Notes: generated by a model not told the origin, from the letters alone. 10,500 nucleotides of DNA from a virus (IMGVR_UViG_2703718869_000008:1-10500); one strand, 5' to 3'. Counted from the first letter of the stretch, positions 4,406-10,500 are shown. Translations and numbers: made by a program.

Positions 4406-5027
4406 ATCGATTTACAGAAACCACAGATATGAGGGCTTAAACGTGGGTAAAGAACCTGAATGGAAAGTTGATAAGCAACCAGCATGGCTGGTGGCAGCAA
4501 TACGAAGAACGATTGCTGATTTACCTCATGGCTATGAGGAAGCAGCAGAAATTCTTGGTTTGTATAAATCTGATGATATCACCCCAGCAAAAGATCAATT
4601 GCATAACAGACTGCGTAGCGGTGGGGATCAAATTTTTCCACTTGAGTGGGCCATGGTTTTACAGGATGCCAGTGGTACCAGGCATGTAACGGATGCAATA
4701 GCCCGTCGTAGTAATGGGGTGTTTGTGCCGCTGGTGGTCATTGATGACATTGACAATGGTGACATTAATCAGCGGCTGATGGAGTCAATAGAATGGATTG
4801 GCAAGCATTCCCAGTACTTACGCAAGGCAACTGCTGATGGAGTTATTGACCAAGCTGAGCGTGAGCAAATCGAAGAGAACAGCTACCAAGTAATGGCGAA
4901 GTGGCAGGAGCATTTAACACTGTTATTTCGTGTTTTTTGTGCGCCGGAAAAGAGTAACGCCCGCGAGTGTGCAGCTCCGGGCGTCGTGGCGTCGATTGCT
5001 TCTGGTTGTGGAGAAACTAACGCATGA
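4398..5027 (+). CDS. ymfL: YmfL-like putative early regulatory protein, in the position of CII.
   Basis: Track ORF 4329..5027, whose upstream part overlaps cro heavily. In-frame ATGs at 4398 (MDKSIYRNHRYEG..., overlapping the cro stop as ATGGATAA) and at 4386 are more plausible, and the choice between them is unresolved. The sequence resembles my recollection of e14 YmfL. The stop overlaps the next ATG as ATGA. Confidence 0.65.
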   Translation: MDKSIYRNHRYEGLNVGKEPEWKVDKQPAWLVAAIRRTIADLPHGYEEAAEILGLYKSDDITPAKDQLHNRLRSGGDQIFPLEWAMVLQDASGTRHVTDAIARRSNGVFVPLVVIDDIDNGDINQRLMESIEWIGKHSQYLRKATADGVIDQAEREQIEENSYQVMAKWQEHLTLLFRVFCAPEKSNARECAAPGVVASIASGCGETNA

Positions 5028-5860
5028 ACAGTTTAACGGCAAATAACCGTTTGTCGCAACAGCTGGTGTTCAGTGTCGCTGAACACCTGTTGTTACGGCA
5101 TGAATGCAGATTACCAAATCACCTGGCTGTAAGTAACCACAGAGAACTTTACCTGACTGTGGGGGGCGAGTTGTGCTGGAACTTAACCGCTGGTTTCGTG
5201 ACGGAAGAGGGCTTTATGTCCATGTTATTCGTTGGGAGCCAGAAACACAGCGCGTTATCTATCTTCGCAAAGACTACCCGCATGAGTGCTTTAGTCCTTT
5301 GTGGAAATTCAGGCGTGATTTTGTTGAGTGTGAAGGACCACCAGCACATTGATTCTGCCATTCCGGGACGTTACACTGTTCAGGCACCTTATAAAGCGGG
5401 TGTCGGGATTGGCGTCCTGGAATTGCATACGGCGACAATTGGCGCGTTAGCGTCTTTTTTGTTGCTACAACTCAGCTATACCCAAATTATGGTGGGCTGG
5501 GTGGGGGCACCGAAAGGTGCGCCGGTTTCCGTATGCGCCGGTTACGCCAACCCTGCTCAGTTCACCACCAGCGAAATTGGCGTTTCCGGTGGTGGAAGTT
5601 ATCCATTGCATACGGAGGCTGCCATCATGGCTACTGTCCCAGCCCTCTCTCGTCTGAATGATGAAGACTTACATAAACTCAGTTATGTAACAACTGCACT
5701 ACGTGCTCTGCGCAAGGTAACTCTTTCGGATCCGCAGGCGCATCAGGTTTTGGTAGAAACCCTTCTTAACTTGCAGGCTGAACGTATTCGTCTGGCGGAT
5801 AAGGCTAATTTTCATATTCACCGTCTCCTGAATATCAGCGGAGGGCATCGTCATGCTTAA
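5024..5860 (+). CDS. 278-codon ORF of uncertain authenticity. It may be a composite of several shorter coding units.
   Basis: It is the only long ORF over this span and is ATGA-coupled to the upstream gene. First-position G enrichment over 5354-5626 supports this frame there. Three points argue against a single gene: a better-supported alternative frame at 5173-5352, an internal hairpin followed by T6 at 5441-5460, and a strong internal SD GGAGG (5614-5618) plus ATG 5627 that would give a 77-aa product (MATVPALSRLNDEDLHKL...). Confidence 0.4.
   Translation: MNSLTANNRLSQQLVFSVAEHLLLRHECRLPNHLAVSNHRELYLTVGGELCWNLTAGFVTEEGFMSMLFVGSQKHSALSIFAKTTRMSALVLCGNSGVILLSVKDHQHIDSAIPGRYTVQAPYKAGVGIGVLELHTATIGALASFLLLQLSYTQIMVGWVGAPKGAPVSVCAGYANPAQFTTSEIGVSGGGSYPLHTEAAIMATVPALSRLNDEDLHKLSYVTTALRALRKVTLSDPQAHQVLVETLLNLQAERIRLADKANFHIHRLLNISGGHRHA
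5173..5352 (+). CDS. Small DUF4222-like protein (59 aa, GTG start) in the -1 frame relative to the 278-codon ORF.
   Basis: My own translation is MLELNRWFRDGRGLYVHVIRWEPETQRVIYLRKDYPHECFSPLWKFRRDFVECEGPPAH. It aligns without gaps to residues 25-70 of the product of 5853..6089, sharing W, G, V, E.Q+VI and PL..FR. A G-rich stretch (GGGGGGCGAG) lies upstream of the GTG. At 59 aa it is shorter than any ORF listed in the track. Confidence 0.55.
   Translation: MLELNRWFRDGRGLYVHVIRWEPETQRVIYLRKDYPHECFSPLWKFRRDFVECEGPPAH
5441..5463 (+). terminator. Weak terminator-like hairpin plus T-run (possible tR1 analogue) inside the 278-codon ORF.
   Basis: GGCGC-gtta-GCGTC (5 bp including one G-U pair) followed by TTTTTTGTT. 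The stem is short, so this is tentative. Confidence 0.3.
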
Positions 5861-6089
5861 TCCGTTGATCCTCAATATTTGCCGTTTGCTTCAGCGTAAA
5901 AAAACATCAATTCCTACAGTTGGGCAGTGGTACACCACGCCTGCAGGGCATGTTCTACGTGTCAGCCTGGTTGACCGTGAATGTCAGAAGGTGATTTGTG
6001 AACCGCTGGGCCGTAATTACCGCGTCAGTATGCCGCTTATAGCCTTTCGCTCCGGAAAAAACATGAAGCATCTCGGAGGTGCAGCATGA
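5853..6089 (+). CDS. Small DUF4222-like protein (78 aa).
   Basis: SD GGAGGG (5840-5845) lies 7 nt before the ATG. The stop overlaps the next start as ATGA. The core GQWYTTPAGHVLRVSLVDRECQKVICEPLG fits the pattern I recall for DUF4222. Confidence 0.7.
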   Translation: MLNPLILNICRLLQRKKTSIPTVGQWYTTPAGHVLRVSLVDRECQKVICEPLGRNYRVSMPLIAFRSGKNMKHLGGAA

Positions 6090-8914: not shown

Positions 8915-9730
8915 ATGAATCAGTTGCTTGTAATTGATGGCGTTTCTGTGCGCCAGTACTTTGAATCTAACTACTGTCTTAACGACCTTCAGAAAGCTGC
9001 TCTTCTTGCCGCTGGTGAGAATCGCTCCTCCCGTTCGCTGGAAGTTCACGAGTTTATGCGTCGTCCTGAAACGAAGGCTCTTGTGGAATTACTGGAAGAA
9101 GAAACTACGGGAGATTCCCGTAGTATTCCTGTCATCACCATTCAGGGGCGCAATGGTGGGACGTATGTCTGTAAAGAGCTGGTCTATGCATATGCAATGT
9201 GGATCAGCCCGGCATTCAGCTTAAAAGTGATACGTACTTTTGATGCGCTTCATAATTCATCACCAGAAGAAACCACATCCGACAAAATTAAATCCGGGGT
9301 CATTCTGCTTGAATCAGCAGCAAAGACTCTAAATCTGTCAAACTCCTCGAAACTTGGTGCATACCAGAAATTATCAAAGGTAGCTGGTCTTCCTGAACTT
9401 ATGCCGATCTATGCCATTGATGCACCTGCTGATGCGCCAGATGGTTCAAGCCGCCCTACGCTGTCGCTGAGTGCACTGCTGAAGCAGTATGGTATCCGCC
9501 TGACGGCTAATCAGGCATATCACCAGATGGTGAAGCTGGGGATCGTCGAGCAGCGCGAACGATACAGCCGTACCGGGATTAACAACATCAAAAAATTCTG
9601 GTCGCTGACGGCGAAAGGCTGCATGTTCGGCAAGAACATCACCAGTCCCGCAAATCCGCGCGAGACGCAGCCGCATTTCTTCGAATCCCGATTCCCTGAG
9701 CTGTTAAAGCTGCTCGATACCGTTCATTGA
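8915..9730 (+). CDS. Antirepressor-type protein: KilA-N domain plus KilAC/ANT-like C-terminal domain (271 aa).
   Basis: Track ORF 8819..9730. I prefer ATG 8915 (MNQLLVIDG...), preceded by GGAGAA, because the ATG at 8819 lies inside the SOS box. The N-terminus (...YCLNDLQKAA...GGTYVCKELVYAYAMWISPAFSLKVIRTFD) is KilA-N. The C-terminus (LSALLKQYGIRLTANQAYHQMVKLGIVEQRE...FWSLTAKGCMFGKN) resembles the KilAC/ANT domain. Confidence 0.8.
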   Translation: MNQLLVIDGVSVRQYFESNYCLNDLQKAALLAAGENRSSRSLEVHEFMRRPETKALVELLEEETTGDSRSIPVITIQGRNGGTYVCKELVYAYAMWISPAFSLKVIRTFDALHNSSPEETTSDKIKSGVILLESAAKTLNLSNSSKLGAYQKLSKVAGLPELMPIYAIDAPADAPDGSSRPTLSLSALLKQYGIRLTANQAYHQMVKLGIVEQRERYSRTGINNIKKFWSLTAKGCMFGKNITSPANPRETQPHFFESRFPELLKLLDTVH

Positions 9731-9737
9731 GGTGACC

Positions 9738-10500
9738 GTGAGAGCACTACTGACCCCTGAAATTGCCCCGCGTATGGGGATCGTATTGTTCAGGCCAGGT
9801 TCAGAGCTGATGCCCCTGTTTATGCAGGGGCGTGTCCTGCTGGAGCCTGAGCCGGAACGTTATTCATCTTTCGCTAGTGGTGCCGTTCCGGCGGCATCAC
9901 AACCGCTGGCGGATGATCCTTCCGTTCGGGCCGTGTTCCGCAATGAGGCAGTGATCCGTCGTGCTGGTGGCGTGGAATGTCTTGAAAGCTGGTTACTTCG
10001 TGAAAAAGGCTGCCAGTGGCTTCATTCCGACTGGCACAGCGAGAACATGACCACAATGCGACACGCTCCGGGTGCAATCCGTCTGTGCTGGCACTGCGAT
10101 AACCAGCTGCGCGATCAGTTCACGGAACGGCTGGAATCAATGGCAACGGATAACTGTGCCCGCTGGGTGTTGTCTGTTGTGCGTCGGGATCTCGGTTTTG
10201 ATGACAGTCACGTTGTGACAATGCCGGAACTGTGCTGGTGGCTGATTCGTAATGACCTGGCGGATGCCTTACCGGAAAGTGCAGCCCGTAAGGCACTGAG
10301 ATTACCGAAGCCTGTTGTGCCGTCTGTCACCCGGGAAAGTGACCTTGTGCCTTCGGTTCCTGCCACCAGCATCATCCAGGATAAAGCGAAAAAGGTGCTG
10401 GCGCTGAAAGTGGATCCGGAGTCGCCGGAGTCTTTTATGTTACGCACCAAACGTCGCCGCTGGGTTAATGAAAAGTACACGCGCTGGGTTAAGACGCAGC
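9738..10500 (+). CDS. DUF968 domain protein (nin-region protein, YdfU-like). The C-terminus lies beyond the right edge.
   Basis: Manual translation from GTG 9738 (SD GAGG 9729-9732) gives VRALLTPEIAPRMGIVLFRPGSELMPLF...CLESWLLREKGCQWLHSDWHSENMTTMRHAPGAIRLCWHCDNQL...KRRRWVNEKYTRWVKTQ. The frame stays open to the window end. It is missing from the ORF track because it has no stop within the window. An alternative GTG lies at 9732. Confidence 0.8.
   Translation, partial: MRALLTPEIAPRMGIVLFRPGSELMPLFMQGRVLLEPEPERYSSFASGAVPAASQPLADDPSVRAVFRNEAVIRRAGGVECLESWLLREKGCQWLHSDWHSENMTTMRHAPGAIRLCWHCDNQLRDQFTERLESMATDNCARWVLSVVRRDLGFDDSHVVTMPELCWWLIRNDLADALPESAARKALRLPKPVVPSVTRESDLVPSVPATSIIQDKAKKVLALKVDPESPESFMLRTKRRRWVNEKYTRWVKTQ

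Follow-up and report, generated by a model that had tools for sequence, protein, structure and literature searches.

The sequence analysed here is the viral stretch IMGVR_UViG_2703718869_000008, positions 1 to 10,500 (the window, i.e. these 10,500 nucleotides as a whole), whose rightward arm carries a dense cluster of Chi, the octamer 5'-GCTGGTGG-3' on which the host enzyme RecBCD acts. Genes were called from Pfam scans, PHROGs and the annotation of relatives (Table 1), and their content shows that the window comes from the early region of a temperate lambdoid of E. coli/Shigella, of the SfV / mEp460_4F5 type. The divergent cI/cro immunity region (3481-4405) forms the left border of the Chi-rich arm and is followed by a cII-like gene, an O-like replication gene with a putative origin and nin-type genes, which is the order of a lambdoid early region; in the relatives, the arm proceeds to Q, the lysis genes and then terminase and cos. 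As the relatives' arm continues in this way, the + strand of the window corresponds to the strand called top in the standard map of lambda, with the right cos end a few kb past the window. Among phages, the window is matched best by mEp460_4F5, Stx2c phages, Lys8385Vzw and Shigella phage SfV, in a mosaic pattern at 95-100% identity, and the same range of identity is found with E. coli prophages, which places the element in hosts for which this octamer is Chi. The O-like gene appears to be the only replication gene of this phage, with no gene for a helicase loader, and rusA, inside the Chi cluster, is the sole recombination-related gene of the window. Five iterons lie within the replication gene (5 matches versus 0.13 expected) and probably mark the replication origin, as in lambda O.

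Table 1. Genes, repeats and Chi sites of the window, with positions counted from its first nucleotide.
Feature	Position	Strand	Remarks
yfdS-like	263-613	-	PHROGs/Pfam unknown-function family
yfdR	604-1140	-	HD 5'-deoxynucleotidase (HD phosphohydrolase)
yfdQ/DUF2303	1268-2092	-	unknown-function family
yfdP-like	2158-2520	-	unknown-function family
HTH_17 open reading frame (ORF)	2935-3309	-	excisionase/AlpA-like
cI-type repressor	3481-4107	-	HTH_3 + Peptidase_S24
cro	4205-4405	+	
cII/CP76-like ymfL gene	about 4443-5027	+	
Ash-family gene	5024-5860	+	
small ORF	5853-6089	+	
O-like replication gene	6086-6904	+	HTH_36/DnaD_N
five iterons GTGCARNARNTKCAC	6351, 6375, 6396, 6417, 6441 (6351-6455)	+	spacing 21-24 bp
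three copies of AGAACCAGTCA	6458-6497		after the iterons
perC-like gene	6901-7395	+	
dam	7395-8048	+	methyltransferase
LexA-DNA-binding-domain protein	8045-8371	+	
rusA	8368-8763	+	Holliday-junction resolvase; Pfam RusA, E = 6e-15
kilA-N gene	8819-9730	+	
DUF968 gene	runs off right window end	+	
Chi	4487..4494	+	cII-like/ymfL gene; TGG CTG GTG GCA, W-L-V-A; kept at the same place in the orthologs of ST64B (77% identity) and LLS (73% identity)
Chi	4730..4737	+	cII-like/ymfL gene; P-L-V-V; missing in ST64B and LLS
Chi	5338..5345	-	Ash-family gene; in SfV, missing in ST64B
Chi	5565..5572	-	Ash-family gene; kept in SfV at 85% local identity
Chi	6608..6615	+	O-like replication gene, ~150 bp right of iterons; GCT GGT GGC, A-G-G
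Chi	7418..7425	+	start of dam methyltransferase gene
Chi	7774..7781	-	dam; in SfV, mEp460_4F5 and AHB12 prophage; missing in LLS and ST64B
Chi	8670..8677	+	inside rusA; ST64B rusA has Chi at same offset
Chi	9963..9970	+	DUF968/HNH gene; kept in ST64B
Chi	10234..10241	+	DUF968 gene; TGC TGG TGG, C-W-W; kept in ST64B
Chi	10363..10370	-	DUF968 gene; kept in ST64B

An exact octamer search of the whole window on both strands revealed 11 Chi between 4487 and 10370, within a 6.3-kb arm. Seven are on the top strand and four on the bottom strand, the latter reading as CCACCAGC on the + strand. The initial annotation had given coordinates for 11 sites; ten of them are exact, and the one placed at 7428 was wrong, its true start being 7418. 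No Chi was found on either strand in 1-4486, in agreement with the earlier statement that 1-4400 contains none. A depletion of Chi in the left arm was considered and rejected, zero observed versus 0.2 expected in 1-4204 being compatible with chance. All 11 sites are located right of cro and within rightward-transcribed genes. On the top strand, four are read in the frame xxG-CTG-GTG-Gxx (Leu-Val), two as GCT-GGT-GGC (Ala-Gly-Gly) and one as TGC-TGG-TGG (Cys-Trp-Trp); on the bottom strand, three correspond to xCC-ACC-AGC (Thr-Ser) and one to C-CAC-CAG-C (His-Gln). By sequence these octamers are exact Chi, and a RecBCD- and orientation-dependent stimulation of recombination, or attenuation of the nuclease, is predicted for them in this phage. 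At 1 per 572 bp, they are about 8 times denser than in the E. coli chromosome, the host figure being taken from Zheng, Casjens, Davidson, Amundsen & Smith 2025 (Genome Res, PMC12315714).

The number of Chi was compared with several expectations. Dinucleotide shuffles of the whole window gave a mean of 0.43 Chi and a maximum of 3. Four protein- or codon-aware null models were applied to the right arm, with 3000 shuffles for the dinucleotide-keeping one. The expected number was 0.49 when codon order was shuffled, 1.45 when synonymous codons were pooled across the arm and 1.91 when they were permuted per gene. In the remaining null, third positions were exchanged only within identical dinucleotide contexts, so that amino acids, codon usage and all dinucleotides were kept, and 2.75 Chi were expected (standard deviation 1.15, maximum 7 in 3000) versus 11 observed. 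Back-translation of the right-arm proteins with the codon usage of phage lambda gave 2.10, again with a maximum of 7. The protein-preserving nulls are conservative, the codons and residues of the existing Chi being inherited by the shuffled sequences. Under a trinucleotide Markov (M2) model, the seven top-strand sites compare with 0.45 expected and the four bottom-strand sites with 0.32. Chi is also the commonest octamer of the right arm: its 24 single-mismatch neighbours sum to 10 on the + strand and 3 on the - strand, versus 7 and 4 for Chi itself.

These values bear directly on the explanation that the octamer is a by-product of composition, raised without selection by CTG-GTG / GCT-GGT codon pairs, by G-rich coding strands and by amino-acid content. 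Ten of the 11 Chi do use common codons (among them the four Leu-Val and the three Thr-Ser frames), the right arm has a positive GC skew, and the protein-preserving nulls lift the expectation from 0.4 to 2-2.75. However, no shuffle among 3000 per null attained 11, the four sites of the bottom strand alone compare with 0.37 expected, Chi is 17-30 times more frequent than its single-mismatch neighbours, lambda and P22 have a similar codon usage and yet no Chi, and the CTG fraction of leucine codons is lower here (0.44) than in Chi-free lambda (0.62). A codon or composition artefact was therefore rejected on the basis of the four shuffles and of the lambda-codon back-translation, and we regard it as very improbable; for the published phages as well, an explanation by codon usage was argued against in PMC12315714. 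The enrichment reported by the initial annotation is thus confirmed far above dinucleotide, codon-aware and Markov expectations: codon- and dinucleotide-preserving shuffles, by which it could be challenged, did not yield similar counts. The excess of Chi is real and specific, and it goes beyond codon usage.

The genes yfdS/R/Q/P (263..2520, -) occupy the position of exo-bet-gam in lambda, and no Chi lies among them; this assignment, already proposed from the sequence, is in agreement with Pfam, PHROGs and the relatives. Homologs of lambda Exo, Bet, Gam, NinB/Orf and Rap and of P22 Abc1, Abc2, Erf and Arf were searched by tblastn. The positive controls in lambda and P22 were recovered, and no match below E = 0.4 was obtained in the window, in AHB12 (the closest E. 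coli prophage), in SfV, in mEp460_4F5 or in the phage LLS. Hidden Red, Gam, Abc or Erf homologs were consequently rejected, the more so as YfdS, YfdQ and YfdP match only families of unknown function and YfdR is an HD phosphohydrolase. Homologs of recombination (Rec) and Gam genes are absent from the window between yfdS and cI and, over the full length of the left operon, from the closest prophage, from SfV, from mEp460_4F5 and from LLS. For these segments, tblastn, Pfam and PHROGs agree with the earlier remark that no RecBCD inhibitor is recognisable. The window holds only the cI-proximal part of the left operon, ending at yfdS, and the absence of Gam from this element is deduced from its relatives.

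In a 2016 paper, YfdR was found to bind DnaA and over-expression of yfdQRST to inhibit initiation at oriC; the left-arm module may therefore target host replication and not recombination. In the Stx2a phage PA2 (12197-16028), a yfdQ/DUF2303 homolog has a complete SSB-exonuclease-RecT-Gam module as its immediate neighbour, and only one Chi, on the top strand (1/0 top/bottom), is present in the first 40 kb of this phage. The yfd genes thus do not stand in for a Rec module, and the abundance of Chi follows Gam, not yfdQ. YfdQ itself matches PDB entry 9o7m ('YfdQ Protein', E = 2e-44), which has 36 chains and suggests that YfdQ forms a very large homo-oligomer; a literature search for a paper on this entry found none.

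The relatives were compared according to the presence or not of gam, as the initial annotation had proposed. All the relatives without a Rec module are rich in Chi, with top/bottom counts of 17/5 for SfV (NC_003444), 14/3 for mEp460_4F5 (LR595868), 20/3 for LLS, in agreement with the published count, 17/3 for ST64B (NC_004313), in which the Rec module is lacking by annotation only, and 13/5 for Hafnia phage yong2, which carries yfdQ. Lambda and P22, both with Rec modules, have 0/0, next to the 1/0 of PA2. In SfV, 18 of the 22 Chi fall between cro and the right cos end, at 26.9-36.1 kb, i.e. in the right 27% of the genome. The cro-to-Q arm of SfV (7/4 observed versus 1.9/0.42 expected) and its late-regulation/lysis segment (6/1 versus 3.5/0.15) are above the protein-preserving null, and the structural genes (3/0 versus 1.8/0.2) and the gtr-int-left-arm region (1/0 versus 0.16/0.07) are not. 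A Rec module is lacking in SfV and mEp460_4F5 and, by its annotation, in ST64B. SfV and mEp460_4F5 contain most of the window at 96-97% identity, with every Chi of the common segments present. The window is nevertheless a mosaic different from either, and the replication and cII-proximal segments also differ between SfV and mEp460_4F5.

A link between missing Rec or anti-RecBCD genes and abundant Chi, as drawn by the initial annotation, has been described before. Bobay, Touchon & Rocha 2013 (PLoS Genet, PMC3784561) found that lambdoids without recombinases and RecBCD inhibitors strongly over-represent Chi, most of all in the stretch that runs from the replication origin to the packaging site. 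Their study used Markov expectations on whole genomes, with no orientation analysis in the portions of the paper at hand, whereas protein-preserving shuffles of one arm were used here. By their measure (observed/expected >1 under M2), the window over-represents Chi on both strands. Seven of its 11 sites lie right of the iterons, and the cluster of the relatives reaches cos; unlike the phages of that study as they are described there, the window has 4 of 11 Chi left of the putative origin. In PMC12315714, phage LLS was isolated, its growth was found to be enhanced by RecBCD, and its 23 Chi were reported to form a right-end cluster, most of them oriented so as to act on RecBCD that comes in at the right cos end. 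According to the same source, 68 of 314 enterobacterial lambdoids are without a Rec module and 62 of these 68 have at least 8 top-strand Chi; for its Class A, the threshold is a minimum of 4 top-strand Chi per genome, and typically 8 or more. The window alone has 7 in 6.3 kb, and the complete relatives having this arm have 14-17. As to right-end clustering, all Chi of the window are right of cro, and in SfV the right 27% alone exceeds the shuffles.

The resemblance to LLS and Class A, as presented in that paper, extends to the lambdoid gene order, to a single O-like replication gene without helicase loader, to many right-arm Chi mostly on the top strand, to yfdR/yfdQ/yfdP in the left operon (described for LLS and ST64B) and, for the part of this operon inside the window, to the lack of SAP, exonuclease, SSB and anti-RecBCD genes. 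The LLS cI and Cro proteins have, according to that paper, their nearest relatives in mEp460_4F5, which is also the closest sequenced phage to the window. LLS differs by an identity of about 73% at the nucleotide level where alignable, by the lack of a recombination gene in the nin region as it is described, where this phage has rusA, and by its bottom-strand share (3 of 23 versus 4 of 11). The lambda red gam chi+ mutants are alike in the octamer, the host enzyme and the rule that cos, together with the entry of RecBCD at the right end, determines which orientation is active. Wild-type lambda, in contrast, has no Chi and carries exo-bet-gam; Chi in lambda is a laboratory mutation, and here the sites are natural and numerous. 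On these sequence features the window belongs to the published lambdoids of 'Class A, no Rec module, high Chi', the absence of the Rec module being taken partly from the relatives. The phenomenon, its location, its link to missing Rec/Gam genes and the mechanism that probably underlies it are already described in the publications of 2013 and 2025, and the window is an added instance.

The Chi sites and their excess, the gene content, the absence of Rec/Gam homologs and the pattern of the relatives were computed here; the dependence on RecBCD and the orientation rules come from the published work on LLS and on lambda red gam. We infer the function in this phage throughout from its sequence and from those published phages. 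With a probability of about 0.62, this phage, which would be without annealing protein, exonuclease and RecBCD inhibitor, depends on host RecBCD and RecA, with Chi promoting recombination. In such a scheme, the cut of terminase at cos would free a right DNA end, a few kb right of the window in the virion map. RecBCD would enter at this end, unwind and degrade leftward and soon meet the dense top-strand Chi, each of which would turn it from a destructive nuclease into a loader of RecA, so that the genome would be spared. The resulting 3' end could invade a sister copy and give rise to the recombination-dependent concatemers needed for packaging, and the phage RusA could resolve the junctions. 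Selection would then keep Chi dense in the arm that extends from the immunity region/origin to cos, for the most part by way of codon choices that are synonymous or conservative, with turnover of individual sites.

Such turnover is indicated by the more distant relatives. In the orthologous arm of ST64B (70-80% identity; 77%), 5 of the 11 Chi are kept, compared with 21.5% of all octamers (P=0.067), and new Chi are present elsewhere. In LLS, 1 of 4 aligned Chi positions is common with the window, and other Chi are found instead. This partial retention, together with the new sites, indicates that density is maintained while sites turn over, as would fit selection acting on density. Strict positional conservation, considered as a proof of purifying selection, is at most suggested by these values.

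Several points weigh against this recombination-promoting role. Positional conservation relative to ST64B is just marginally above background and is at most suggestive. A Gam-like gene may be present in the distal left operon of this element, outside the window, and small, fast-evolving RecBCD inhibitors may evade homology searches. For this phage itself, the support is drawn from sequence. Furthermore, the observed/expected ratio is about 11 on the bottom strand versus about 2.9 on the active strand, and simple entry from the right end does not predict the four Chi left of the putative origin (0.8-1.9 kb left of the iterons) nor the four in 'inactive' orientation.

A second explanation, on which the initial annotation had put the emphasis, is that Chi only protects: it would stop RecBCD from degrading linear intermediates such as rolling-circle tails and cos-cut ends, and recombination would be unneeded. 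The sequence evidence for it is identical to that for the recombination model, and the enrichment of both orientations fits ends on either side, for example sigma tails from the origin at 6351-6455. In addition, LLS grows well on recD hosts, which are nuclease-less, and rolling-circle replication is mentioned as an alternative in PMC12315714. The same paper, however, reports poorer growth of LLS on recB or recC null hosts, where RecBCD nuclease is missing altogether, and normal growth on recD hosts; if escape from degradation were the sole benefit of Chi, removal of the enzyme should help or be neutral. Growth enhancement by RecB/RecC was shown there for LLS and three other phages. The presence of rusA, a resolvase of recombination intermediates, also speaks against a purely protective role. 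Because of the behaviour of LLS on these hosts, promotion of recombination is ranked above protection alone, to which we assign roughly one chance in five. The class and the link to missing Rec/anti-RecBCD genes proposed at the outset are therefore supported, and it is the emphasis on protection that published experiments, as far as described in that source, do not favour, since they point to Chi-stimulated recombination.

Two further explanations place the benefit or the origin of the sites outside phage replication. Chi could act as self-mimicry, limiting the products of RecBCD and hence the acquisition of CRISPR (clustered regularly interspaced short palindromic repeats) spacers or another RecBCD-linked defence. 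Levy and colleagues reportedly found in 2015 that Chi bounds RecBCD-dependent spacer acquisition, and enrichment in both orientations is compatible with a mark of 'self' that is independent of the direction of entry. Neither the tracking of Chi abundance with the absence of a phage recombination module nor the clustering beside the cos end is explained in this manner, and self-mimicry is improbable. Drift of an old or defective prophage toward the Chi content of the host chromosome is less probable still: of 5426 complete E. coli genomes, 3814 do contain parts of the window, in most cases as prophages, and a concern about prophage-based data sets is raised in PMC12315714, but the density is 8 times the host average and not equal to it, the same Chi are found in the viable sequenced phages SfV, mEp460_4F5 and Lys8385Vzw, and the enrichment is limited to one arm, the structural and left-arm regions of SfV being at expectation.

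With Chi-promoted recombination as the preferred reading, the orientation of the sites deserves separate consideration. The 7:4 strand bias had been read as favouring the orientation seen by RecBCD from the right; as evidence of selection on orientation it is not sustained, since the ratio does not depart from 1:1 (P=0.55). With every gene of this arm pointing rightward, 87% of Chi would be predicted on the + strand from coding-strand composition by itself, and relative to this prediction the - strand is marginally over-represented (P=0.048). For the class as a whole, the predominance of the orientation read by RecBCD from the right cos end is published (PMC12315714), in line with the direction of entry first proposed for the window. 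A switch of orientation at the putative origin was also considered and rejected, + and - Chi being present on both sides.

The four bottom-strand Chi of the window were attained in none of 1500 shuffles in one run and in about 1 of 3000 in another. Among five phages without Rec module (SfV, mEp460_4F5, LLS, ST64B and Hafnia yong2), 13 of 15 distinct bottom-strand loci are located right of cro (P = 2e-6). One of these loci is a 14-bp perfect palindrome, CCACCAGCTGGTGG, formed by two overlapping Chi of opposite orientations around a CAGCTG core; it is found at 34854-34867 in SfV and 40384-40397 in mEp460_4F5, in a DNA methyltransferase gene downstream of Q and outside the window. In the searched parts of PMC12315714, no analysis of bottom-strand enrichment was found, these sites being described there only as 'inactive'. 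Positive selection on bottom-strand Chi in this arm and phage class is a tentative proposal, which we hold to be clearly less probable than its negation, and a residual compositional effect could also account for the excess. If selection is involved, RecBCD would also enter rightward, possibly at origin-proximal rolling-circle (sigma) tail ends or at broken forks near 6351-6455, and the Chi array would be a two-way guard around the replication/late region instead of a one-way array facing cos. Bottom-strand enrichment and co-clustering are the sole modestly novel lead of this analysis.

The window is a clean and statistically robust case of a phage that appears to use host RecBCD-Chi in place of its own Red/Gam, a strategy which would affect prophage replication, recombination and module exchange. 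Prophages of this kind are found very commonly among E. coli, Shigella and Shiga-toxin phage lineages. What is added to the published description is a codon-aware control confirming the excess, the finding that the 7:4 ratio is uninformative, and the enrichment of the 'inactive' strand. At least 80% of the window is covered by only 1 of 20,395 E. coli records. Segments 1-505 and 2520-3480 are the least common to the relatives, and most database matches start at 263 or 505. In the closest E. coli prophage, a different hypothetical gene, on the + strand, replaces the HTH_17 ORF region, and the interval between yfdP and cI looks like a mosaic junction.

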